Below, in pieces: positions 1,377-59,985 of a stretch of DNA of 64,000 bases; within the stretch, counting starts at the first letter, position 1; each line of letters opens with the position of its first letter. The stretch lies in the sequence record MZ234013.1; one strand, given 5' to 3'. Both the position numbers and the translations under genes were made by a program. The notes beneath the pieces are model-generated. The model had not been told where the DNA came from, searched no databases, and saw nothing but the letters and a program-made list of their open reading frames with translations. Origin of the DNA: Escherichia phage vB_EcoM-101112UKE3-1.

Positions 1377-1406
1377 GTTTACAAGACTGTTCCTCTGTGG
1401 TACTAT
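1377..1406 (+). promoter_or_regulatory. T4 early-type promoter (GTTTAC -35, TGTGG, TACTAT -10, 18-bp spacer)
   Basis: GTTTAC at 1377-1382, TACTAT at 1401-1406; followed by GGAGG and ATG 1435; near-identical cassettes at 27472 and 55797. Confidence 0.65.
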
Positions 1407-1434
1407 ACAACTATCAACTACGGAGGAACACAAA

Positions 1435-1962
1435 ATGAACGCTAAAGATATTTTCAACCTGGTAAATTACAACGATGGTAAATTTAAATCTGAAGCACAA
1501 AGCAAGTTCTTTAATGACATCTCAATCGGAGGTGAAATCACGGTTGACGGAGGACAAATTTACAAATCTCGTTGGAATTGGATCGTTATTATCGATGAGA
1601 TTGGTATTGTAGAAATTTACAAGAATACGAATAAAAAACGTACATTACACTGGTCTCGTGATACTACCGAACAGTACAAAAAGGATAAAGCATCTAAATT
1701 ATCTCGTGTAACTCAAGAAGATATTGAGTTCATCAAGAAAGATATTTTGATGTATGATAACTTAATTGCTGAAGAGCAAGCAGTTATTGATAAATTTGAC
1801 GAGATTAAAGCTTCTCGTGAAATTCCTGATTTTATGAAAGAATCAGTAAATGAACGATACACTCTCATTTCAGAGCGTATTGAAACTTACAAAAAGCAAA
1901 GAGCTGAACGCCAAAATACTCTTCGGAAGTTTGAAGAACGGTTAAAGACGGTACTCGCATAA
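1435..1962 (+). CDS. hypothetical protein (175 aa)
   Basis: ORF track; ATG 7 nt after GGAGG; preceded by early-type promoter. Confidence 0.5.
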   Translation: MNAKDIFNLVNYNDGKFKSEAQSKFFNDISIGGEITVDGGQIYKSRWNWIVIIDEIGIVEIYKNTNKKRTLHWSRDTTEQYKKDKASKLSRVTQEDIEFIKKDILMYDNLIAEEQAVIDKFDEIKASREIPDFMKESVNERYTLISERIETYKKQRAERQNTLRKFEERLKTVLA

Positions 1963-3329: not shown

Positions 3330-4349
3330 ATGAAAACTCGTTCTCAAATTGAAGATATGGTTCGTAATGCCAGTTATACTCGTGATGTTATGACATTTTT
3401 GTGCCAAAATAATTTAGACCCTGATAAAGTTAATCGTGATATTCACTTTAAATATATGAATAGCAGTGAATGGTTACGTCATTTTAGTAAAGCGGGGTAT
3501 ATTACACAAATGACGGCTCGTGAGCAGCTCACCGATTTCTGTAAAACTATTGATTATAAAAATCCTCTATTTGTTCAAGGCGTTGGTCAGAGTAAGGTTG
3601 ATTTATCAACAGGATTTTTTAATCCAAATCATTATCGTATTGAGTGGAGATTTATTGCTCTATTCCGTAAACAATTAAAGCAAATTTTGTCGACGGCTAG
3701 TCGATTAAAAGGTTCTGATATTAACTTAAAGAATCTGAAATTTGATGGTTATACTCTTCAGATGGAAGTAAGACCATTAAAAGAAAATAACAGAACTGCA
3801 CGAATTAGCTTTAAACCTAATACAAAAAATTCTCTTTCAATTTGTGAATGCCTTAAATCACAGTTGACAGAAGCATTTAAGTATATGGATGTAGTTGCCG
3901 CGGTTCAGTCTAAGATTTTACCTCATTTTGAGCGAAATTGGGAACATACAACAACGTATGAACTTGATATGATCGTTTCATTTAAATACGATTTTTTGAG
4001 AAAGGACGAAGTCCCGCAAGAGAAAAAGCAGGAAGTGCAAGATATCTTAAATTTATCCAATTACTCATCAAACGATCCTAAATTTTGGATGTATAGTTCA
4101 GGTAATAAAGATACATGGAAATTCAATAAAGTGAATTTTCTTCCTGTTGAAAATCCGAGTCTTAAACCTGTTGAAAAATGGCACGCGGATGCGATTGAGA
4201 AGTCTATCAAGGCAGTAGATGATGAACTCGTTAAAGCAACTAATGAAGTGTTAGAAGCTGAAAAGATGCTAGAAAAAGCTCAAGAAAAAGTCAAAAATCT
4301 TACGAAGCAACGTTCTAAACTGAACAATGCACTAAATGCACTAAACTAG
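3330..4349 (+). CDS. hypothetical protein, member of 4-gene tandem paralog array (C-terminal coiled coil)
   Basis: ORF track 339 aa; shares RxEWRFIxLFRKQLKxxxSxASRLKG-type segment with next ORF. Confidence 0.55.
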   Translation: MKTRSQIEDMVRNASYTRDVMTFLCQNNLDPDKVNRDIHFKYMNSSEWLRHFSKAGYITQMTAREQLTDFCKTIDYKNPLFVQGVGQSKVDLSTGFFNPNHYRIEWRFIALFRKQLKQILSTASRLKGSDINLKNLKFDGYTLQMEVRPLKENNRTARISFKPNTKNSLSICECLKSQLTEAFKYMDVVAAVQSKILPHFERNWEHTTTYELDMIVSFKYDFLRKDEVPQEKKQEVQDILNLSNYSSNDPKFWMYSSGNKDTWKFNKVNFLPVENPSLKPVEKWHADAIEKSIKAVDDELVKATNEVLEAEKMLEKAQEKVKNLTKQRSKLNNALNALN

Positions 4350-4406: not shown

Positions 4407-5408
4407 ATGACTCGTAACGAATATATCAAATCATTCAATAGCGTTATTGATGATAAAGTTAAACCTGTGTTTAGTCAGAATAGTGTTATTTCCATTATCA
4501 ATCAATGGCTCAATAATATTGATGCAAGTATTGTTTCTTCAAGCAAATTTATTCATGAAGTTCATAAAATTTCTAGTCGCGAATATAAAGATGATATTAA
4601 GGAAACTTTTAAAGGTTCTCGTCTTCTTTCATATTTAGTTAATCAAGATATTCTTGGTAAATTTGGGAAAGAAATTAAACGAACTAAAGATGTAGTAGGA
4701 TACAGTTGGTTCGGTGATGTTAATTCTTATCATCTTAATAATAAAGAAGACCCTGAGAATATTTTTACTCGTCGTTGGATTAGTAATTTTAGACTTTTCA
4801 AGAAGCAAATTCTAAAATCAGCTTCTAAATTATGCTATGGTGATTATCGTCAAATCCATCCTTGGGCTTCTGATATGATTATCATAAAAGAATATGAGCT
4901 TGATAAAAATAAAGCAGCTATTTTTGTGAATTATGAATTTTTTACACCAGAAGCTAATCAAAAGAACATTAATAAATTTTTCTCAATTGCTAGCGATATA
5001 ACTCGTCAGTTAGAGACCGCATTACTTTGTATGGAAACAGTAGAAAATATTCATACTTATCCTTTTAAGAATATATGCGGTTGGGAAGGATATAAAATTG
5101 TAGTTAGTCTCCGTGAAGTAAAGTGTGCGTACTCACCGACTGATAAAGAAATTTACCAACAAAAATGTGATGAAATTGTGAATACTCCTAAAGAAGAAAC
5201 TACCCTTGAGGAACTAATGGAATGTCTTGACGATTCGCCTGAACCAGTAGAAATTCGTCCAGAAGTTATTGCACTAGAAAAAGCTTATAAAGAAGTTCTA
5301 GAAATTTCTAATAAAGCGCAGAAAGAATATGAGCAGGCTAAAAAGATTTGGGAAGAATCCGTTAATCGTCTTGATCGTCTTGAACAAGCTTTACAGTTAA
5401 TTAAGTAA
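4407..5408 (+). CDS. hypothetical protein, member of 4-gene tandem paralog array (C-terminal coiled coil)
   Basis: Start moved to ATG 4407 (GAGG 8 nt upstream) because track start 4356 lies inside the promoter; 333 aa. Confidence 0.55.
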   Translation: MTRNEYIKSFNSVIDDKVKPVFSQNSVISIINQWLNNIDASIVSSSKFIHEVHKISSREYKDDIKETFKGSRLLSYLVNQDILGKFGKEIKRTKDVVGYSWFGDVNSYHLNNKEDPENIFTRRWISNFRLFKKQILKSASKLCYGDYRQIHPWASDMIIIKEYELDKNKAAIFVNYEFFTPEANQKNINKFFSIASDITRQLETALLCMETVENIHTYPFKNICGWEGYKIVVSLREVKCAYSPTDKEIYQQKCDEIVNTPKEETTLEELMECLDDSPEPVEIRPEVIALEKAYKEVLEISNKAQKEYEQAKKIWEESVNRLDRLEQALQLIK

Positions 5409-12327: not shown

Positions 12328-12357
12328 GTTTACAACAAGTTCAAACCGTGGTATTAT
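12328..12357 (+). promoter_or_regulatory. T4 early-type promoter
   Basis: GTTTAC 12328-12333, CGTGG, TATTAT 12352-12357. Confidence 0.6.
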
Positions 12358-18476: not shown

Positions 18477-19327
18477 AGAATTTTAAACTTGACATTAATG
18501 ATGAATTTTTAATAAAGGAATTAGTTGAAAAATTAGCGTTGAGTGAAGAAGACGCCAAGTCTTACATTAATTTTATTTCTATGAATTCAACTGTTAAAAC
18601 TCCAGGTAAAACGGAAGCACACCACGTGCTTCCTAAATCAATATTTCCTGAATATTTAAAATCTACATGGAATTTAGTTAATTTAAGTCATTTTAATCAT
18701 TTTAAAGCACACTTCTTATTAGCAAAAGGTAAAAATGGAAAAATGCTAAATGCTTTAAATAGAATGATGTCAGGAAAAACATATAAAAATTTATCTTTAG
18801 CCGAAGTTGATTTAATAGCTGCTGAATATAGTTTTATAAAACAAGATGTAAGTGACACAATATCAAAAAGGCTTCAACAGTATTATTCAAATCCGCAAAA
18901 TAGAAATGCTGCTAGAGAAAGGGCATTAAAATATTTTTCAGTAGCAAAAAATAGGAAAGATAACAAAGAAAGATTAAATAATTTTAAAACAAAACAAAAA
19001 ATTTCAATGGCTTCAAGGGAATGGTTTAATAACGAAGAAAATAAAATTAAACACCAAAAGGCTGTTCGTGCTGCTTTATCAAAACCTGAATATAAAATAG
19101 CTATATCAAATTCAGTAGCTGCTAGTTGGAAAAATCCGGAGATTAGAAAAGCTCATATAGCGTCTCGACGAAAAGGCTATCATTGGGATAATAAAGATAA
19201 ATTGTATGAATTGTGGATATCATATAATCGTCCTAAACATGTGATGTTTAGAAAAATGTTAGTTAAGAATGGATATCCAATAGAGGCTTCATTACAGGCT
19301 TTAGTTAAAGAATTTTCTTCATTGTGA
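18473..19327 (+). CDS. HNH-family homing-endonuclease-like protein
   Basis: 284 aa, GTG start; HNH core EAHHVLPKS...NLVNLS...HFKAH; basic C-terminal half with repeated NP-x-x-R motifs. Confidence 0.6.
   Translation: MKNFKLDINDEFLIKELVEKLALSEEDAKSYINFISMNSTVKTPGKTEAHHVLPKSIFPEYLKSTWNLVNLSHFNHFKAHFLLAKGKNGKMLNALNRMMSGKTYKNLSLAEVDLIAAEYSFIKQDVSDTISKRLQQYYSNPQNRNAARERALKYFSVAKNRKDNKERLNNFKTKQKISMASREWFNNEENKIKHQKAVRAALSKPEYKIAISNSVAASWKNPEIRKAHIASRRKGYHWDNKDKLYELWISYNRPKHVMFRKMLVKNGYPIEASLQALVKEFSSL
18473..19327 (+). mobile_element. candidate free-standing homing endonuclease gene insertion between 47 and 46
   Basis: HNH ORF flanked by duplicated start segment. Confidence 0.4.
18489..18507. repeat. 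19-bp exact direct repeat copy 2
   Basis: ttgacattaatgatgaatt at 5' end of HNH ORF. Confidence 0.8.
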
Positions 19328-19342
19328 ACAATTGGATACAAA

Positions 19343-21025
19343 ATGAAATCATTTAAACTTAATAGAGTAAAATATAAAAATATAATGTCAGTTGGTCAAA
19401 ATGGAGTTGACATTCAATTAGATAAGGTTCAAAAAACTCTTATTACTGGACGAAATGGCGGTGGTAAGTCTACTATGTTAGAAGCCATCACATTTGGGCT
19501 TTTTGGCAAGCCATTTCGTGATGTAAAGAAAGGTCAATTAATAAACAGCACAAATAAGAAAGAACTTTTAGTTGAACTGTGGATGGAATATGATGAGAAA
19601 AAGTACTATATCAAAAGAGGACAAAAACCGAACGTTTTTGAAATCACCGTTAACGGTACACGTCTTAATGAATCTGCCAGCAGTAAAGATTTCCAAGCAG
19701 AATTTGAACAGCTTATCGGAATGTCATATGCCAGTTTCAAGCAGATTGTTGTCCTTGGTACAGCAGGGTATACCCCTTTCATGGGTTTGTCGACCCCTGC
19801 GCGAAGAAAGCTTGTGGAAGACCTGCTTGAGGTAGGAACATTAGCTGAAATGGATAAGCTTAATAAAGCACTAATACGTGAATTAAACTCACAGAACCAA
19901 GTGCTTGATGTTAAAAAAGATAGTATTATCCAACAAATTAAAATATATAATGATAACGTTGAACGCCAGAAAAAATTGTCTGGTGACAATCTTACTCGTC
20001 TTCAAAATATGTATGATGATTTGGCAAAAGAAGCTAGAACGCTAAAATCGGAAATAGAAGAAGCTAATGAAAGATTAGTTAATATTGTTTTAGATGAAGA
20101 CCCGACTGATGCATTTAATAAAATCGGTCAAGAAGCAGTTTTAATTAAATCAAAAATTGACTCGTATAATAAAGTCATTAATATGTATCACGAAGGTGGA
20201 TTATGTCCAACCTGTTTGTCACAATTAAGTTCCGGTGATAAAGTTGTTTCTAAAATTAAAGATAAAGTTTCTGAATGTACGCATTCGTTTGAACAGCTTT
20301 CAACACACCGTGATAATTTAAAAGTTCTTGCTGATGAATACCGAGATAATATTAAAACCCAGCAGTCGTTGGCAAATGATATTCGCAATAAAAAGCAATC
20401 TCTAATCACGACAGTAGATAAAGCTAAAAAAGTTAAAGCAGCTATAGAAAAAGCATCATCCGAGTTTATTGACCATGCTGATGAAATAGCATTGCTTCAA
20501 GAAGAACTTGATAAAATTGTTAAGACAAAAACTAATTTAGTAATGGAAAAATACCACCGAGGAATTTTGACTGATATGCTCAAAGATTCTGGTATTAAAG
20601 GTGCTATTATTAAAAAGTACATTCCATTATTTAATAAGCAGATTAACCATTATCTTAAAATAATGGAAGCGGATTATGTGTTTACATTAGATGAAGAATT
20701 TAATGAGACAATTAAATCCCGTGGTCGTGAAGATTTTAGTTATGCTTCATTCAGTCAAGGTGAAAAAGCACGAATTGATATTGCTCTTTTATTTACTTGG
20801 CGTGATATTGCTGAAAAAGTTTCAGGTGTTAAAATAAACACACTGATTCTTGATGAAGTTTTTGATTCAGCGACCGACGTTGAAGGTGTAAAAGCTATTT
20901 CAACTATTTTAGATAGTTTAAAAAATACTAATGTTTTTGTTATTTCGCATAGAGACCATGACCCGCAAGCATACGGTCAGCATCTTCAAATGAAGAAAGT
21001 TGGTCGATTTACTGTAATGGTTTAA
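19343..21025 (+). CDS. 46: recombination ATPase gp46 (Rad50/SbcC-like)
   Basis: 560 aa; Walker A GRNGGGKST, central coiled coil with CPTC zinc hook, C-terminal LILDEVFDS. Confidence 0.95.
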   Translation: MKSFKLNRVKYKNIMSVGQNGVDIQLDKVQKTLITGRNGGGKSTMLEAITFGLFGKPFRDVKKGQLINSTNKKELLVELWMEYDEKKYYIKRGQKPNVFEITVNGTRLNESASSKDFQAEFEQLIGMSYASFKQIVVLGTAGYTPFMGLSTPARRKLVEDLLEVGTLAEMDKLNKALIRELNSQNQVLDVKKDSIIQQIKIYNDNVERQKKLSGDNLTRLQNMYDDLAKEARTLKSEIEEANERLVNIVLDEDPTDAFNKIGQEAVLIKSKIDSYNKVINMYHEGGLCPTCLSQLSSGDKVVSKIKDKVSECTHSFEQLSTHRDNLKVLADEYRDNIKTQQSLANDIRNKKQSLITTVDKAKKVKAAIEKASSEFIDHADEIALLQEELDKIVKTKTNLVMEKYHRGILTDMLKDSGIKGAIIKKYIPLFNKQINHYLKIMEADYVFTLDEEFNETIKSRGREDFSYASFSQGEKARIDIALLFTWRDIAEKVSGVKINTLILDEVFDSATDVEGVKAISTILDSLKNTNVFVISHRDHDPQAYGQHLQMKKVGRFTVMV

Positions 21026-27388: not shown

Positions 27389-27471
27389 CATACAAGTAAT
27401 ATAAATCTATACTTATGAAAAAACAGATGATTCTGGACCTTTAGAATTCCCTAAAAAATTTTCACAAAACT

Positions 27472-27501
27472 GTTTACAAGACTGTTCTTCCATGGTACTA
27501 T
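27472..27501 (+). promoter_or_regulatory. T4 early-type promoter (cassette family with 1377 and 55797)
   Basis: AT-rich TTTTCACAAAAC upstream, GTTTAC 27472-27477, TACTAT 27496-27501. Confidence 0.65.
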
Positions 27502-27538
27502 ACAACTATCAACTACTGATACAGATTTGGAGAATAAA

Positions 27539-27775
27539 ATGAAAATTGTTATGGGATGCTTAGCAGTTTGTTTAGTTGCATTAGCAGCAGTTCCATTTGT
27601 TAGTGTTGAAAATGATACTCAACCTGTGATTGAATCTAGCACCATTATTCACACTAATGGTAAAATATCAGTTAAAATTGATGATAATCTTCATGTGAAT
27701 ACAAATGGATCTTTAGGTGTGCAAATGGGTAATATCTGCATAAGCACTACTGGAGTAATTACTACTTGCATTTGA
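27539..27775 (+). CDS. small secreted/membrane protein (78 aa)
   Basis: ATG 27539 after GGAGA; N-terminal signal-like segment MKIVMGCLAVCLVALAAVPFVSV. Confidence 0.45.
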   Translation: MKIVMGCLAVCLVALAAVPFVSVENDTQPVIESSTIIHTNGKISVKIDDNLHVNTNGSLGVQMGNICISTTGVITTCI

Positions 27776-28578: not shown

Positions 28579-29319
28579 ATGATTAGTGACTCTATGACAG
28601 TTGAAGAAATCCGTCTTCATTTGGGGCTTGCATTAAAAGAAAAAGATTTCGTAGTTGATAAAACTGGCGTTAAAACTATTGAAATTATTGGCGCATCATT
28701 TATAGCAGATGAACCGTTTATTTTTGGCGCTCTTAATGATGAATACATTCAGCGTGAACTTGAATGGTATAAATCTAAGAGCTTGTTCGTTAAAGATATT
28801 CCGGGTGAAACACCAAAGATTTGGCAGCAGGTAGCATCTTCTAAAGGCGAAATTAACTCGAATTATGGTTGGGCTATTTGGTCAGAAGATAACTATGCCC
28901 AGTATGATATGTGTTTAGCTGAACTTGGTCAAAATCCTGATTCTCGACGTGGTATCATGATTTATACTCGTCCATCCATGCAATTTGACTACAATAAAGA
29001 TGGTATGTCAGATTTCATGTGTACGAATACAGTACAGTATCTGATTCGTGATAAGAAAGTCAATGCAGTAGTAAGCATGCGCTCAAATGACGTGGTCTTC
29101 GGATTCCGTAATGATTATGCATGGCAAAAATACGTATTAGATAAATTAGTATCTGATTTGAATGCAGGCGATTCAACTCGTCAGTATAAAGCAGGTTCTA
29201 TTATATGGAATGTTGGAAGTCTTCATGTATATTCTCGTCATTTTTACTTGGTTGATCATTGGTGGAATACTGGCGAAACTCATATTGTGAAAAAAGATTA
29301 TAACGGTGAGTGGAAATGA
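28579..29319 (+). CDS. 42: dCMP hydroxymethylase gp42
   Basis: 246 aa; size and sequence match recalled T4 gp42. Confidence 0.95.
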   Translation: MISDSMTVEEIRLHLGLALKEKDFVVDKTGVKTIEIIGASFIADEPFIFGALNDEYIQRELEWYKSKSLFVKDIPGETPKIWQQVASSKGEINSNYGWAIWSEDNYAQYDMCLAELGQNPDSRRGIMIYTRPSMQFDYNKDGMSDFMCTNTVQYLIRDKKVNAVVSMRSNDVVFGFRNDYAWQKYVLDKLVSDLNAGDSTRQYKAGSIIWNVGSLHVYSRHFYLVDHWWNTGETHIVKKDYNGEWK

Positions 29320-30158
29320 TTCAATTCGTAATTCCAAGTTATCAGCGTGTCGGGGCAGTTTCTGCCCTTGATATGTTTCCGACTGATTATGAACCCCATA
29401 TTGTAGTGCGTGAACATGAAGAAAAAGCTTATCATGACGCTTATGGGTCTAGAGCTAAAATTATAACTATTCCTGATGATGTAAACGGAATTGCCGGTAC
29501 TCGTAAAGCAATTACTGATATGTATGCAGGTCAACGAATCTGGATGATTGACGATGATACTACTATTCGTATGAGCTCAATGCGAAAAAGAGATGATCGT
29601 CGTTGTGTAGATAAAATTAATCAATTAACTCGTGAACAGTTCTATGAATTGATTCAATATGTTGAGGATGCCATGGATTGCGGGTATTATCATGGTCATG
29701 CTCGTCTACCTATTTTTAAAATTACTTCATCTTGGGGTAATTATCGTGAAAATTCATATGGATTCACGAATACATGGTATGACCTCGGAAAACTTACGAC
29801 AGAACAAATTGGGTATGGAAAAATTGATTTGTGCGAAGATATGTATGCATTTCTCAATTTAATTAATCAAGGTTATCCGCATTTGGCCTTGTTCAAATAT
29901 CTGGTTGTATCTGGAAAAGCACAAGCTCCTGGAGGGTGCAGTTCAATTCGTAGTAATTCTAAACATAATAGAGCGCTTGAGCAAATCAATAGAGAGTTTC
30001 CAGAGCAAGCTCGTTGGAAAACTTCTAATATTGAAAAACGAAAATCGTTGGGTGAAGAAGACGAGCCATTAAAGGTTCTTCGCATGTGTGTTTCACGTAA
30101 AGAAAAATCAGAAGCATTTCATAAGTTTAATGCTATTCATCCGATAGCAGTTGATTAA
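29316..30158 (+). CDS. DxD-type (GT-A-like) glycosyltransferase at the locus occupied by beta-gt in T4
   Basis: 280 aa from ATG 29316 (ATGA overlap with 42); IWMIDDDTTIRM DxD motif; size differs from T4 beta-gt (351 aa). Confidence 0.6.
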   Translation: MIQFVIPSYQRVGAVSALDMFPTDYEPHIVVREHEEKAYHDAYGSRAKIITIPDDVNGIAGTRKAITDMYAGQRIWMIDDDTTIRMSSMRKRDDRRCVDKINQLTREQFYELIQYVEDAMDCGYYHGHARLPIFKITSSWGNYRENSYGFTNTWYDLGKLTTEQIGYGKIDLCEDMYAFLNLINQGYPHLALFKYLVVSGKAQAPGGCSSIRSNSKHNRALEQINREFPEQARWKTSNIEKRKSLGEEDEPLKVLRMCVSRKEKSEAFHKFNAIHPIAVD

Positions 30159-30235
30159 TGCCTAAATTTATTGTGTTATAATTACTTTATCTTTAACCAG
30201 TGAGGAAAATATAATGATGCCTATGGAAAAAATGA

Positions 30236-31417
30236 ATGTCTATTGCAGATTTAAAATCCCGTTTGATTAAAGCTTCCACTTCTAAAATGACTGCTGAACT
30301 GACTACATCTAAATTCTTTAATGAAAAAGATGTAATCCGTACAAAAATTCCAATGCTTAATATCGCTATTTCTGGTGCGATTGATGGCGGTATGCAGTCT
30401 GGTTTAACTATTTTCGCAGGGCCTTCTAAACACTTTAAATCAAATATGTCTTTGACTATGGTTGCGGCATATTTGAACAAATATCCTGACGCGGTTTGTC
30501 TATTCTATGATAGTGAATTTGGTATTACTCCAGCTTATTTGCGATCCATGGGAGTTGACCCGGAACGAGTAATTCATACGCCAATCCAGTCAGTTGAACA
30601 GCTGAAAATTGATATGGTGAACCAGCTTGAAGCTATTGAGCGTGGTGAAAAGGTTATTGTATTCATCGACTCAATTGGTAATATGGCTTCTAAGAAAGAA
30701 ACGGAAGATGCCTTAAATGAAAAATCTGTGGCAGATATGACTCGTGCTAAATCACTGAAGTCATTATTCCGTATTGTTACTCCTTATTTTAGTATTAAAA
30801 ACATTCCATGTGTTGCGGTTAACCACACAATTGAAACAATTGAAATGTTTAGTAAAACCGTGATGACAGGTGGTACAGGCGTAATGTATTCGGCTGATAC
30901 TGTATTCATTATCGGTAAGCGCCAGATTAAAGATGGTTCTGATCTTCAGGGGTATCAATTTGTTCTAAATGTAGAAAAATCTCGTACCGTTAAAGAAAAA
31001 AGTAAATTCTTTATTGATGTTAAATTTGACGGGGGTATCGATCCTTATTCTGGATTGTTAGATATGGCTCTAGAATTAGGATTTGTAGTAAAACCTAAAA
31101 ATGGCTGGTATGCTCGTGAATTTCTTGACGAAGAAACCGGCGAGATGATTCGCGAAGAAAAATCTTGGCGTGCAAAAGATACTAACTGCACTACATTCTG
31201 GGGTCCTTTATTTAAGCATCAACCATTCCGAGATGCTATTAAACGTGCTTATCAGTTAGGTGCTATTGATAGTAATGAAATTGTTGAAGCTGAAGTTGAT
31301 GAATTGATTAACTCAAAGGTTGAAAAATTTAAATCCCCAGAAAGTAAAAGTAAATCAGCTGCTGATTTAGAAACTGACCTTGAGCAGTTAAGTGATATGG
31401 AAGAATTTAATGAATAA
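30236..31417 (+). CDS. uvsX: RecA-like recombinase UvsX
   Basis: 393 aa; Walker A GPSKHFKS; N-terminus MSIADLKSRLIKAS. Confidence 0.95.
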   Translation: MSIADLKSRLIKASTSKMTAELTTSKFFNEKDVIRTKIPMLNIAISGAIDGGMQSGLTIFAGPSKHFKSNMSLTMVAAYLNKYPDAVCLFYDSEFGITPAYLRSMGVDPERVIHTPIQSVEQLKIDMVNQLEAIERGEKVIVFIDSIGNMASKKETEDALNEKSVADMTRAKSLKSLFRIVTPYFSIKNIPCVAVNHTIETIEMFSKTVMTGGTGVMYSADTVFIIGKRQIKDGSDLQGYQFVLNVEKSRTVKEKSKFFIDVKFDGGIDPYSGLLDMALELGFVVKPKNGWYAREFLDEETGEMIREEKSWRAKDTNCTTFWGPLFKHQPFRDAIKRAYQLGAIDSNEIVEAEVDELINSKVEKFKSPESKSKSAADLETDLEQLSDMEEFNE

Positions 31418-36080: not shown

Positions 36081-36124
36081 ATGTCCTCCTTTAAATTAAT
36101 ATTTATCACAAATTTCATAAATTT

Positions 36125-36154
36125 GTTTACTTTCTCAGCTTGTTATGGTATTAT
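36125..36154 (+). promoter_or_regulatory. T4 early-type promoter
   Basis: GTTTAC 36125-36130, TATTAT 36149-36154; drives ORF 36180 and dam. Confidence 0.6.
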
Positions 36155-36179
36155 AAAATAAATTGCTGAGGATGATATA

Positions 36180-37519
<1,340 letters not shown>

Positions 37520-47445: not shown

Positions 47446-47616
47446 AGTTTAAAATTTTTTCATAAAACTATATACATCAGTAGTTGATTATGGTACTATA
47501 TCAATATCAACTACTGATACAGAAAACAACTTGAAGAATAAAATGGATAATTCGTTAAAGGTGCGCTGATACTCTTCTGAAACGCATCGCTCCAATGTTC
47601 AATTAATGAGGAAATT

Positions 47617-54659: not shown

Positions 54660-55217
54660 ATGCAGAAAACGAATCCGGGGTTACAGAGACTATTTCAGAT
54701 TCCGACATTTACCCTATCGAACAGTGACTTGACTAGTGAAATGAAGGTCAAAATTGCTGATACTGCAAGATACTCTTTAAAACAAAACCCGAACCAGGAT
54801 AAAGCAGAAGTTATTGAAAGATGTCGTATTGCTGTATACGCAGAGTTTTTTGTAGCAGATTGGCTAAGCGGGTATGTTAATAAAGGTCAAGAAGATGTCG
54901 ATGATCCATATACATACGCGTGGGATGTTTTAGCACATCCAAAATACTGTGGGCTTCGTGTAGAAGTTAAGACACATCAAACTGGCTCACGTTGGATTTC
55001 TGTAACAACAGGATGCAGCGGAGAGTATCCATACGGTTCTGGAATAAATCTAGGGCCCATTCTAAATCATCAAGTCGCTGACTGTATAATTATATTCAAC
55101 ACTAAAGAAATTCATCCAGGTGTTATCCAGTACACTCCGAAGTTCATCGGTGACAGAGAAGACCTTCGTAAGGTTGTAAGAAAAAGCAACTACAATGGAT
55201 GGTATCTTTCCATTTAA
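54660..55217 (+). CDS. denB: endonuclease IV (DenB)
   Basis: 185 aa; size and position after rIIB. Confidence 0.8.
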   Translation: MQKTNPGLQRLFQIPTFTLSNSDLTSEMKVKIADTARYSLKQNPNQDKAEVIERCRIAVYAEFFVADWLSGYVNKGQEDVDDPYTYAWDVLAHPKYCGLRVEVKTHQTGSRWISVTTGCSGEYPYGSGINLGPILNHQVADCIIIFNTKEIHPGVIQYTPKFIGDREDLRKVVRKSNYNGWYLSI

Positions 55218-55235
55218 AAAAATTTTCACAAAACA

Positions 55236-55265
55236 GTTTACATACCACAAGGACCGTGGTACTAT
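55236..55265 (+). promoter_or_regulatory. T4 early-type promoter
   Basis: TTTTCACAAAAC upstream, GTTTAC 55236-55241, TACTAT 55260-55265. Confidence 0.65.
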
Positions 55266-55292
55266 ACAACTATCAGCTACGGAGGAGTAAAA

Positions 55293-55556
55293 ATGAAATT
55301 TAAATTTTATTATGCTAAACATAAAATTACCGGTGAATTTATTGCATTTACGACTTCAACTACAGATGAAGGAGATATTTTTACTGCAGTATTTTTATCA
55401 AAATGGGAATCAGATCAACCTTACTTATCATCACGTGAAGATCTCCAACGATTAGTTAATGGAGAATATAATGATTCATGGTCATATTTAGTCCATGATT
55501 GTGTTAAAAAGGCAATAAAACAAAAACACTTGGAAATCGTTGAGATTGAACTATGA
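55293..55556 (+). CDS. hypothetical protein (87 aa)
   Basis: ORF track; GGAGG then ATG. Confidence 0.4.
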   Translation: MKFKFYYAKHKITGEFIAFTTSTTDEGDIFTAVFLSKWESDQPYLSSREDLQRLVNGEYNDSWSYLVHDCVKKAIKQKHLEIVEIEL

Positions 55557-55589
55557 GTTCATTATGTTGGTGTTTTGTTTGGTTAATTA

Positions 55590-55699
55590 GTATTCCAGTA
55601 ATTTGTTTAACATTTACTTTTGTGATGAGGTTATTATGAAAATTGTATTCCAGTAATTTGTTTAACATTTACTTTTGTGATGAGGTTATTATGAAAATT
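55590..55699. repeat. perfect tandem duplication, 2 x 55 bp
   Basis: gtattccagtaatttgtttaacatttacttttgtgatgaggttattatgaaaatt at 55590-55644 and 55645-55699. Confidence 0.95.
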
Positions 55700-55789
55700 T
55701 TGAATTCTGTACTTATTGCGTGTGCATGGTGGGTTGCACAAGTTTCGGCAGTAGTGATTGGTATTCACATTTATTACGAATATTTTTAA
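55691..55789 (+). CDS. small hydrophobic protein (32 aa) starting inside repeat copy 2
   Basis: ATG 55691 with GAGG upstream; copy 1 start gives only MKIVFQ. Confidence 0.25.
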   Translation: MKILNSVLIACAWWVAQVSAVVIGIHIYYEYF

Positions 55790-55796
55790 AAAAGTT

Positions 55797-55826
55797 GTTT
55801 ACAAGACTGTTCTTCCGTGGTACTAT
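55797..55826 (+). promoter_or_regulatory. T4 early-type promoter (cassette family)
   Basis: GTTTAC 55797-55802, TACTAT 55821-55826, then CTATCAACTACGGAGGAAC leader. Confidence 0.65.
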
Positions 55827-55854
55827 TACCCTATCAACTACGGAGGAACAGAAA

Positions 55855-55968
55855 ATGAAAAAGATTGTTAAAGCTATATGGAATGTAGTTATAATACTAA
55901 TAGTTTTGAGTATATTCCCAATCGTTTTAATGATTGATGTATTAAACGTTTACTTTGGATTTATGTGA
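55855..55968 (+). CDS. small membrane protein (37 aa)
   Basis: ATG 55855 after GGAGG; hydrophobic. Confidence 0.3.
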   Translation: MKKIVKAIWNVVIILIVLSIFPIVLMIDVLNVYFGFM

Positions 55969-58881: not shown

Positions 58882-58886
58882 TTTTA

Positions 58887-58912
58887 GGGAGAGCCTCGGC
58901 TCTCCCTTTTTT
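58887..58912 (+). terminator. intrinsic terminator
   Basis: GGGAGAGCC-TCG-GCTCTCCC followed by TTTTTT. Confidence 0.8.
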
Positions 58913-58937
58913 ATTTCAAAAATTTTTTCACAAAACG

Positions 58938-58967
58938 GTTTACAACCAAAGCATACTGTGGTACTAT
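58938..58967 (+). promoter_or_regulatory. T4 early-type promoter
   Basis: GTTTAC 58938-58943, TGTGG, TACTAT 58962-58967. Confidence 0.65.
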
Positions 58968-59016
58968 ACAACTATCAAATAAATGAACTGAAACAAACAA
59001 CCCGGAGATACAAAAA

Positions 59017-59244
59017 ATGAAATTTAAAATCGAAAACGAAATCGTTAAAGCTAAAAATGCTCTGACTGCTAACAAACTGGTTGTAGATGGTATTGAATAT
59101 GATATCTGTGGAGTTCGTGAAGAAAAACCTGGTGTTCTGACTTTCTTCACAATGATTTTTAAATTTAAAGGTGACACAGAATTCAAACAGTTTGATTTTG
59201 CCCATGAAGACGAAATCGAAGTTCGTAATCTGAACATTAAGTAA
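59017..59244 (+). CDS. hypothetical protein (75 aa)
   Basis: ORF track; SD CCGGAGA. Confidence 0.45.
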   Translation: MKFKIENEIVKAKNALTANKLVVDGIEYDICGVREEKPGVLTFFTMIFKFKGDTEFKQFDFAHEDEIEVRNLNIK

Positions 59245-59283: not shown

Positions 59284-59312
59284 GTTTACTTCTGCTTTAA
59301 ACATGATACTAT
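59284..59312 (+). promoter_or_regulatory. T4 early-type promoter for motA
   Basis: GTTTAC 59284-59289, TACTAT 59307-59312 (17-bp spacer). Confidence 0.6.
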
Positions 59313-59349
59313 AGACCTATCAAATAAATGAACTGAAACGGAGATTAAA

Positions 59350-59985
59350 ATGTCTAAAGTAACTTACATCATCAAAGCTTCTAACGATGTTCTGAATGAA
59401 AAAACTGCTGCGATTTTAATTACCATTGCTAAGAAAGATTTCATTACAGCTGCAGAAGTTCGTGAGGTGCATCCAGATTTAGGTAACGCAGTAGTTAATA
59501 GTAATATTGGGGTATTGATTAAAAAAGGCCTGGTGGAGAAATCTGGTGATGGATTAATCATTACAGGTGAAGCTCAAGATATTATTTCAAACGCAGCAAC
59601 TTTATACGCGCAGGAAAATGCTCCGGAACTACTGAAAAAACGAGCAACTCGTAAAGCTCGTGAGATTACTTCTGATATGGAAGAAGATAAAGACCTCATG
59701 TTAAAACTTTTAGATGAAAATGGATTTGTTCTTAAAAAGGTTGAAACTTATCGTAGTAATTATCTTGCCATTTTAGAAAAACGCACTCACGGAATTCGTA
59801 ATTTTGAAATTAACAATAATGGAAATATGCGAATTTTTGGATACAAAATGATGGAACATCATATTCAGAAATTTACTGATATCGGAATGTCATGTAAAAT
59901 CGCTAAAAACGGTAATGTGTATCTTGACATTAAACGCTCGGCAGAAAACATTGAAGCTGTAATCACTGTAGCATCTGAACTGTGA
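59350..59985 (+). CDS. motA: middle-transcription activator MotA
   Basis: 211 aa; N-terminus MSKVTYIIKASNDVLNEKTAAILITIAKKDF matches recalled T4 MotA. Confidence 0.95.
   Translation: MSKVTYIIKASNDVLNEKTAAILITIAKKDFITAAEVREVHPDLGNAVVNSNIGVLIKKGLVEKSGDGLIITGEAQDIISNAATLYAQENAPELLKKRATRKAREITSDMEEDKDLMLKLLDENGFVLKKVETYRSNYLAILEKRTHGIRNFEINNNGNMRIFGYKMMEHHIQKFTDIGMSCKIAKNGNVYLDIKRSAENIEAVITVASEL

Follow-up and report, generated by a model that had tools for sequence, protein, structure and literature searches.

Why should nearly the same promoter and leader stand before several genes of one phage? The question is raised by a window of 64,000 nt from Escherichia phage vB_EcoM-101112UKE3-1 (record MZ234013.1), the whole stretch of DNA analysed here, in which an earlier note had reported a near-identical unit of ~55 bp at 1377, 27472 and 55797, with relatives at 55236 and 58938, and had likened it to the promoter-early stem-loop (PeSL) cassettes of T4-type phages. 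All of these copies are present, and we found the cassette unit (~55-90 bp) at seven sites (1377, 27472, 47470, 55236, 55797, 58938 and 59284), the last of which, the promoter of motA, had been missed; it has a 23-bp leader, CTATCAAATAAATGAACTGAAAC, in common with 58938. We conclude with good confidence that the repeated units are immediate-early promoters with their leaders, acting as homology patches for the exchange of modules.

Judged from its sequence, the window belongs to Tequatrovirus (T4-like); its first 8 kb match several hundred Tequatrovirus genomes, best at 99% (Yersinia phage PYps14T and Shigella phage JK08). The cassettes were compared with those of T4 (AF158101), T2, PST, a48, fPS-65, TadeuszReichstein, CM8 and Sf24, and the alignment showed the copies to be mosaics of the following blocks, the -10 box being followed by a core and a leader with its Shine-Dalgarno sequence (SD).

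UP element: AAAAATTTTTTCACAAAAC, A/T-rich
-35: GTTTACA, then a 17-bp spacer of types A-E
Extended -10: TGGTACTAT, TG-extended
Core: ACAACTATCAACTAC, the conserved discriminator and start region
Leader type 1: GGAGGAAC..ATG
Leader type 2: TGATACRGATTTGGAGAATAAAATG
Leader type 3: AATAAATGAACTGAAAC..GGAG..ATG

The seven copies, one of which precedes a relic open reading frame (ORF), are arranged as follows.

1377..1437, + strand: copy 1, 5′ of nrdC.8, orthologue of T4 site 53943; -35 GTTTACA at 1377-1383, spacer type A, -10 TGGTACTAT at 1398-1406, core ACAACTATCAACTAC at 1407-1421, SD GGAGG at 1422-1426, ATG at 1435
27450..27541, + strand: copy 2, after gene 43; UP at 27453-27470, -35 at 27472, spacer type A, -10 at 27496-27501, core at 27502-27516, leader type 2 at 27517-27538 with GGAGAATAAAA, ATG at 27539
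47451..47569, + strand: copy 3, in the motB/cef interval; UP, variant -35 ATATACA at 47470, -10 at 47494-47499, core variant ATCAATATCAACTAC, leader type 2b, 8-codon relic ORF at 47543-47569
55217..55295, + strand: copy 4, after denB; UP, -35 at 55236, spacer type B, -10 at 55260-55265, core ACAACTATCAGCTAC, leader type 1, ATG of orf87 at 55293
55797..55857, + strand: copy 5, 5′ of the ndd.4 homologue; -35 at 55797, spacer type A, -10 at 55821-55826, core variant TACCCTATCAACTAC, SD GGAGG at 55842-55846, ATG at 55855
58886..59019, + strand: copy 6; terminator hairpin at 58886-58907 with a T-run, UP at 58919-58936, -35 at 58938, spacer type C, -10 at 58962-58967, core, leader type 3 at 58978-58994, ATG of orf75 at 59017
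59284..59352, + strand: copy 7, the motA promoter; GTTTACT, 16-bp spacer, TGATACTAT, AGACCTATCAA, leader type 3 at 59323-59339, GGAG, ATG at 59350

All seven copies carry the -35 GTTTAC(A/T), a spacer of 17 ± 1 bp (16 bp at 59284) and a TGn-extended -10 TAnnnT, except that the -35 at 47470 is ATATACA. The UP sequence AAAA(A/T)TTTTTCA(C/T)AAAAC is found at 27453, 47451, 55217 and 58919 and is weaker or atypical at 1377, 55797 and 59284, while the core is nearly invariant across 18 copies from T4 and the window. By the usual spacing, transcription probably starts at the A of ATCAACTAC, which would make the leaders 19-43 nt long. The leaders carry a GGAG-type SD, 7-9 nt 5′ of the ATG; the ending in GGAGG and ATG that had been ascribed to the unit holds at 1377 and 55797, but 27472 has GGAGA and a different leader, TGATACAGATTTGGAGAATAAAATG.

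The repetition far exceeds chance. GTTTACA-N14-TGGTACTAT, searched with up to three mismatches, has 15 matches in the window, all on the + strand, against 0.84 expected, a number reached by none of 100 shuffles. With the same tolerance, the 24-mer TGGTACTATACAACTATCAACTAC, which runs from the extended -10 into the transcribed region, gave five matches (at 1398, 27493, 47491, 55257 and 58959) against 0.00 expected; the 55797 copy has four differences from it (TATTACCCTATCAACTAC), its whole spacer being as in 27472 and its leader as in 1377. The spacer AAGACTGTTC(C/T)TC(T/C)(G/A) is common to 1377, 27472 and 55797, and the longest exact matches between copies measure 19-24 bp. Furthermore, the promoter at 12328 has the upstream part of its UP element in common with 27472.

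Such likeness could also arise by convergence, if selection for maximal promoter strength drove independent early promoters to one optimum, with no role for recombination. T4 early promoters as a class do have an extended consensus that goes past the -35 and -10 (PMC2988021), and all 17 early promoters of the window have GTTTAC, a 16-17 bp spacer and TGnTAnnnT. We compared these 17 early-promoter-like sites, anchored on the -10 box, and found that the family stands apart from the others mainly downstream of the -10: over the 15 nt 3′ of this box the mean pairwise identity is 79% within the family versus 34% among the other early promoters of the window. The identity thus lies at spacer and leader positions that are free to differ elsewhere, with spacers up to 95% identical. 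Because it extends past the -10 and includes shared spacers and leaders, the similarity is not limited to the -35 and -10 hexamers. In addition, discrete blocks (spacers A-E, leaders 1-3) recombine across loci and phages with sharp breakpoints, and one locus of phage TB004 has switched wholesale to the variant of another locus. Convergence is for these reasons very improbable; on sequence grounds the copies are paralogues, not convergent look-alikes, with identical spacers and leaders that the polymerase does not contact.

Other promoters show block sharing of their own. Those at 4349 and 50954, whose spacers, TTT(G/A)CCACAAGGATG, are all but the same, form a second set of shared promoter blocks; 55236 has ACCACAAGGA in common with them, yet carries the -10 and core of the cassette family. 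The -10 of T4, PST and the window, TACTAT, is replaced by TAATAT or TATTAT in all three family copies of a T2 segment (at 4577, 5065 and 8214), which suggests either a concerted change among copies or parallel selection.

What the paralogues are is answered by T4 itself. Its early promoters are described as having an UP/-35/TGn/-10 architecture (Hinton's review, PMC2988021), and the window copies resemble these immediate-early (Pe) promoters in their UP element, GTTTAC -35, 17-bp spacer and TGn-extended -10, and in lying on the same strand before the same genes, the T4 minus (early) strand corresponding to the window + strand in the alignment to AF158101. In T4 we found units before nrdC.8, nrdC.10, imm.1, cef, motA, ndd.6 and ndd.4, all on the early strand, and further family members, likewise on the early strand, before frd.3, trna.4, e.8, denV and mobD.5. 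Window sites are orthologous to the T4 sites before nrdC.8, imm.1, cef, ndd.6, ndd.4 and motA. There is no essential difference between the cassettes and T4 early promoters; the former are a subfamily marked by TACTAT and the ACAACTATCAACTAC start region, marks that the other 10 early promoters of the window lack.

Existing records agree with this identification. At the nrdC.10 copy, a GenBank fragment of T4 is annotated with a terminator and with -35 and -10 signals, and the fPS-65 record has a "predicted early promoter" at both its denB and its motA copies. A 92-bp query found 4220 places in 548 phage records, usually 8-9 per Tequatrovirus genome; in a small number of T-even relatives outside these, for instance Shigella phage phi25-307, it found a single place only. 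Anatomy, T4 orthology and early strand thus agree in identifying the units as early promoter-leader cassettes of a T4-type phage, as had been proposed. Each cassette would join a short 5′ leader to an immediate-early promoter, which the unmodified host sigma-70 RNA polymerase reads.

Several genes behind the cassettes vary between relatives. Three ORFs of the window are directly concerned; together with the other variable ORFs, they fall in PHROG families with no assigned function, and a Pfam search of them was without match.

27539..27775, + strand: orf78, in a variable gene slot between cassette 2 and imm.1
55293..55556, + strand: orf87, PHROG 2390, a variable gene with the position and length of PST ORF268
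59017..59244, + strand: orf75, PHROG 10955, polymorphic, between two promoters that share the 23-bp leader repeat

At motA, no difference separates the window from T4 over terminator, UP element and spacer C and into the core as far as CTATCAA; beyond this point T4 has leader 2′ and motA, and the window has leader 3, orf75, a second promoter, leader 3 again and then motA. Phage a48 has a single cassette in which leader 3 and motA follow a spacer of type D, the type of the T4 nrdC.10 and frd.3 promoters, an arrangement as expected after loss of orf75 between the two leader-3 repeats; orf75 itself is found in a minority of relatives and is absent from T4. The sequences at the imm.1 slot agree completely in the window, TadeuszReichstein and T4 between gene 43 and ...CTATCAACTAC, after which the window has leader 2 and orf78, TadeuszReichstein has leader 1 and an unrelated orf83, and T4 has leader 2 joined straight to imm.1 without orf78; all three rejoin at the imm.1 ribosome site.

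Reassortment of the same kind is seen at denB, where orf87 stands behind leader 1 in the window, Paracelsus, TB004 and Sf25 and behind leader 2 in fPS-65, while PST, T2 and UFV09 have leader 2 with ORF269. T4 has leader 2 and an 8-codon stub that keeps the first 2 and the last ~6 codons of orf87; the loss is therefore an internal deletion, and we rejected cassette-by-cassette excision for it. In TB004, the cassette before ndd.4 agrees with the nrdC.8 type at all six differing positions between the -35 and the core, which in sequence terms is a non-allelic conversion to the nrdC.8 type. In Sf24, homology with the window at motB-cef starts exactly at the 5′ edge of the cassette. The claim that the copies flank plastic regions is thus borne out at the motA, imm.1, denB and motB-cef loci, where the downstream genes vary between relatives, and so is that of modular exchange, in that spacers, leaders and downstream ORFs reassort with breakpoints inside the cassettes. 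The 1377 locus shows no polymorphism among relatives except for the insertion of a homing endonuclease gene in some; in AR1, RB6 and 303Ecol101PP this is an insertion of ~695 bp with a segE-like gene, in the nrdC.9/nrdC.8 interval beside copy 1. As a separate observation, the motA early promoter of TB004 (segment 5090-5140) has a deletion of ~41 bp (...GGCTCT/ACCAAAGCATACTGTGGTACTAT...) that leaves only its extended -10: the terminator has lost its 3′ arm, and UP element and -35 are gone.

Unless there has been recombination inside the cassettes, such mosaics are difficult to account for. For T4, homology patches of less than 50 bp are reported to suffice for recombination (cited in the work of Arbiol et al.), and the copies probably serve as patches of 20-75 bp for the phage's own recombination system. 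By acting in this way, they would allow promoter halves, leaders and small accessory ORFs to be exchanged, inserted and lost as self-expressing modules.

The motB-cef copy merits separate treatment, having been described as a degenerate copy at about 47494-47616 that retains the leader and an ATG opening an 8-codon ORF. The leader, the ATG (47543) and the 8-codon ORF (ending at 47569) are as described, but the cassette, which spans ~47451-47545, is intact and it is the ORF that has decayed. CM8 and Sf24 have the identical cassette, including the ATATACA -35, driving an intact 89-codon ORF, and a decayed promoter is rejected on this ground; in the window and T4, an internal deletion of ~205 bp leaves the short ORF behind it. 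The leader through ATGGATAA is common with the T4 e.8 cassette, 64 kb away, and the window relic has GAAG where T4 has GGAG. Here the spacer is an inverted copy of the family's own core and leader sequence, and a 20-nt near-palindrome brackets the -10 (47476-47495, ATCAGTAGTTGATTATGGTA, and 47499-47518, TATCAATATCAACTACTGAT; 85% complementary, 3 nt between the arms). It is kept in T4, CM8 and Sf24, and as RNA it is predicted to fold at -20.2 kcal/mol (z about -4 to -5) with the SD left free.

A palindrome centred on the -10, together with the near-invariance of the core in the T4 and window copies, raises the alternative that the core (ACAACTATCAACTAC), the -10 palindromes or both bind a phage protein, be it an early shut-off factor, a site-specific recombinase or a nuclease, and that this binding maintains the similarity. 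How T4 early promoters are shut off is not known (PMC2988021), Arbiol et al. speculated on a specific DNA-binding protein for PeSL recombination, and some relatives do have a seg-type homing endonuclease gene beside copy 1. However, the core is found in a subset of early promoters only, yet shut-off is class-wide; the modules contain no recombinase gene and their variable ORFs no Pfam match; breakpoints fall at several positions of the cassette and not at one; and the inverted repeats are markedly stabler on the sense strand, which points to RNA. We consider a protein site highly unlikely as the cause, and retain promoter-leader units exchanged through their homology as our explanation.

The leaders may also shape the fate of the messages. 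The consensus of strong RegB/S1 sites is GG*AGRAYARAA (PMC3014915), and T4 motA mRNA is a documented RegB target, cleaved in the motA SD. Leader type 2 (GGAGAATAAAA) matches this consensus at every position and the motA leaders match it closely, whereas leader type 1 (GGAGGAACAC) and the orf75 leader fit the GGAG core only. The fit of leader 2 to an optimal site suggests that its messages are probably inactivated within minutes.

Several observations speak against the reading of the units as immediate-early promoters and exchange patches. A number of cassette-adjacent indels are, by their junctions, microhomology deletions and not cassette-by-cassette exchanges: orf78 is flanked by the 8-bp microhomology ATGAAAAT, the orf87 stub of T4 is likewise a microhomology deletion, and an insertion of 540 bp at 36113, comprising a promoter and an ORF, has 8 bp of microhomology (ATCACAAA) at its ends. 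Moreover, that breakpoints coincide with cassettes is a confounded observation: an indel of a whole gene has to end between genes, and the intergenic DNA is largely cassette. Leader 1 lies outside the extended RegB consensus, a significant terminator stem-loop is found directly 5′ of only one of the seven copies, in which they differ from PeSLs, and we found nothing usable on mapped 5′ ends of T4 early transcripts in the searchable literature.

Is the spacer, shared so closely between copies, also read at the level of RNA? At 1377 and 55797, the spacer and TGTGGT are complementary to ACTAC and GGAGGAACA, and a repeat search, independent of folding, places the inverted-repeat arms at 1388-1401/1417-1430 and 55807-55821/55837-55851. 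A terminator scan found no upstream terminator at 1377 or 55797, and read-through from the next upstream promoter is therefore expected at both. The predicted fold of such a whole-cassette read-through RNA has -22.7 kcal/mol at both sites (z -5.0 and -4.2, respectively), and the predicted probability that the SD is unpaired is 0.00 in the read-through RNA compared to 0.85-0.89 in the transcript from the cassette's own promoter. The read-through RNA would thus fold into a hairpin of 14-15 bp with the -10 in its loop, burying the ribosome site and the RegB GGAG, and the RNA from its own promoter would lack the 5′ arm and hence be translatable.

The pattern extends to T4. When 70 nt around the -10 were folded, z fell below -2 at 17 of the 31 early promoters of T4 and in 8.7% of the random segments (p = 2e-5, Mann-Whitney). 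Furthermore, spacer and leader contain the arms of a perfect inverted repeat, 7 bp or longer, in 10 of the 31, with 0.6 expected from shuffles, and such a match occurs in 1.5% of non-cognate T4 spacer/leader pairs. The sense strand folds better than the antisense strand by 3.7 kcal/mol (24 of the 31 T4 cases), a difference that points to RNA rather than duplex DNA. In the window, z is below -2 at 7 of 16 folded early-promoter sites, and at 36125 and 45772 the SD is predicted to be paired in the read-through RNA only.

These results led us to consider that the spacer may double as an anti-SD arm in many early promoters of the T4 type, 1377 and 55797 among them, which would then be self-insulating units translated from their own immediate-early transcript only. 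A competing view is that the complementarity is a by-product, promoter-required pyrimidine-rich spacers (TTCCTC) happening to pair with purine-rich ribosome sites. Many T4 early promoters indeed have TTTCC or TTCCTC right after the -35, and the comparison of orthologues revealed no compensatory changes. Against such a by-product stand matches of at least 7 bp in 32% of cognate versus 1.5% of swapped pairs, several stems with arms unrelated to SD and anti-SD, such as the 13-bp AGTTGACAAGATT stem at T4 57990, and stems that continue through TGTGGT/ACTAC, outside the SD. We regard the by-product explanation as less likely than not.

Weighing against the anti-SD arm, four of the seven copies have no significant fold, and the predicted folds show no SD sequestration at 27472, 55236, 58938 and 59284. 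In RB69, 3 of 7 sites have strong hairpins (p = 0.2), an underpowered comparison in which the pattern found only 7 sites. Among hairpin orthologues, compensatory double substitutions were seen at none of 15 pairs, a result indistinguishable from shuffles; 95.6% of cells are paired and 5 of the 15 pairs vary on one side only (G.U), at low divergence, and an exact 28-mer search of IMG/VR returned 4 stretches only, too few for covariation. With the enrichment over unrelated promoters and the strand asymmetry in its favour, we put the anti-SD spacer forward tentatively, at a little under an even chance.

Hairpins that sequester the ribosome-binding site and contain an internal late promoter are known for T4 e, soc, 49 and I-TevI, the only cases that a review lists. 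The 1377 and 55797 cassettes share this geometry in prediction, with the promoter inside the structure and an own transcript without the 5′ arm. In those four cases a late promoter is used and expression is delayed; the internal promoter of the window cassettes is early and would restrict translation to the immediate-early burst. Hairpin gating, if true, would extend the principle from late to early promoters and explain how terminator-less cassettes shuffle without disturbing their neighbours. If read-through transcripts are translationally silent at these genes, this would furthermore provide a simple rule for telling those T4 accessory genes whose expression is confined to the opening minutes of infection, an explanation of the RegB resistance of middle-mode transcripts, and a design principle for portable, self-insulated phage expression modules. 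We found no prior statement of a promoter-spanning hairpin at early promoters in reviews, the older literature being outside the search. The hairpin is the only aspect of the cassettes with some potential for novelty, a supported prediction whose novelty is uncertain.

The surroundings of the cassettes follow the T4 map. The gene order of the window runs nrdC.10, 49, 55, 47-46, 45-44-62, 43, imm, 42, uvsX, 41, 61, then dam, 56, soc, mod, dda, dexA, motB, cef, 39, rIIA, rIIB, and ends with denB, ndd, 52, motA and asiA, up to where late genes begin; it is broken relative to T4 by ~20 indels or replacements. Unrelated to the cassettes are an 861-bp insertion in the gene 46/46.1 region (18491-19351) and the replacement of the T4 b-gt/segA segment (29302-30247). 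The T4 segments with mobB, mobC, segF, the nrdD intron with I-TevII, and mobA with gene 60.1 are absent from the window, and the topoisomerase subunit that T4 splits into genes 39 and 60 may be unsplit here. An Rfam scan of the whole window at gathering thresholds gave zero matches.

Two further differences were noted. From the end of the ndd.6 homologue to the start of ndd.5 (55585-55699) there is a 55-bp tandem duplication (2.1 copies, 98% match), which adds a 6-codon ORF and leaves both genes intact. None of the sampled relatives has it, including the 99.5%-identical Paracelsus, whose spans are ~55 bp shorter and match in two pieces; it is either private to the MZ234013.1 genome or an assembly artefact. 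The 540-bp insertion relative to T4, at 36113-36740, contains an early promoter at 36125 together with the greater part of a 186-aa ORF (36180-36740), which adjoins the dam methylase gene and of which T4 retains only the last ~27 codons. In Pfam this ORF resembles two restriction endonucleases below threshold, DpnII (16.9 bits against a cut-off of 23) and BanI, and it has no PDB or NCBIfam match. DpnII is specific for GATC, the site methylated by Dam.

How, then, do the cassettes compare with PeSLs? Arbiol et al. (2010) described PeSLs in RB49/phi1 as strong early promoters combined with terminator stem-loops, which mediate modular shuffling with crossovers between the -10 and the ATG and form mini-circles, and remarked on analogous elements based on T4 early promoters. 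Comeau, Arbiol & Krisch (2014; PMC4122927) then described PeSLs in Yersinia phage PST versus T4, with the consensus TTTACW-N17-TAYWAT, AT-rich sequence upstream and SD and ATG at the 3′ end; stems there are only weak and variable, AGNA-loop-TCNT being accepted.

The stem-loop is where the window cassettes part from this description. When the 60 nt 5′ of each -35 were folded, a significant hairpin appeared at 58938 only (-18.9 kcal/mol, z -5.6; a 9-bp stem with 6 GC pairs and a T-run), and no terminator-like hairpin was found 5′ of the other six copies (z -1.1 to +0.4, indistinguishable from shuffles). Weak stems of the AGNA-loop-TCNT type were not distinguishable from chance in the window, and a terminator-pattern scan placed upstream terminators at 3 of the 17 early promoters (36125, 38455 and 58938). 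The 58938 copy is thus, on sequence features, the only complete PeSL-type composite, and on the evidence of folding and the scan we rejected an upstream stem-loop as a general part of the unit for six of the seven copies. The likeness to PeSLs proposed in the earlier note therefore stands for promoter, leader, SD with ATG and gene-variable setting, but not for the stem-loop half. Mini-circles have been shown for the RB49/phi1 PeSLs only.

In other features the cassettes resemble the PeSLs of RB49/phi1, of PST/T4 and of nt-1/KVP40. They are likewise composite regulatory units that end in SD and ATG, and they cluster where the genome is plastic, their neighbouring genes being different from one close relative to the next. 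Exchange points lie 3′ of the -10 and 5′ of the ATG, and the PST/T4 consensus fits. The worked PST/T4 example, the denB-ndd locus with ORF268/269 (PMC4122927), is the 55236-55797 locus of the window. Since PeSLs have been described for PST/T4 at this very locus, where orf87 takes the position of ORF268, the interpretation proposed for the window is essentially published: the cassettes combine a known class, the T4 early promoters, with the PeSL-type shuffling model, and are hence not new. Taken together, the present results confirm this model and add to it clean new examples of the reassortment of spacers, leaders and ORFs at motA, imm.1, denB and motB-cef.

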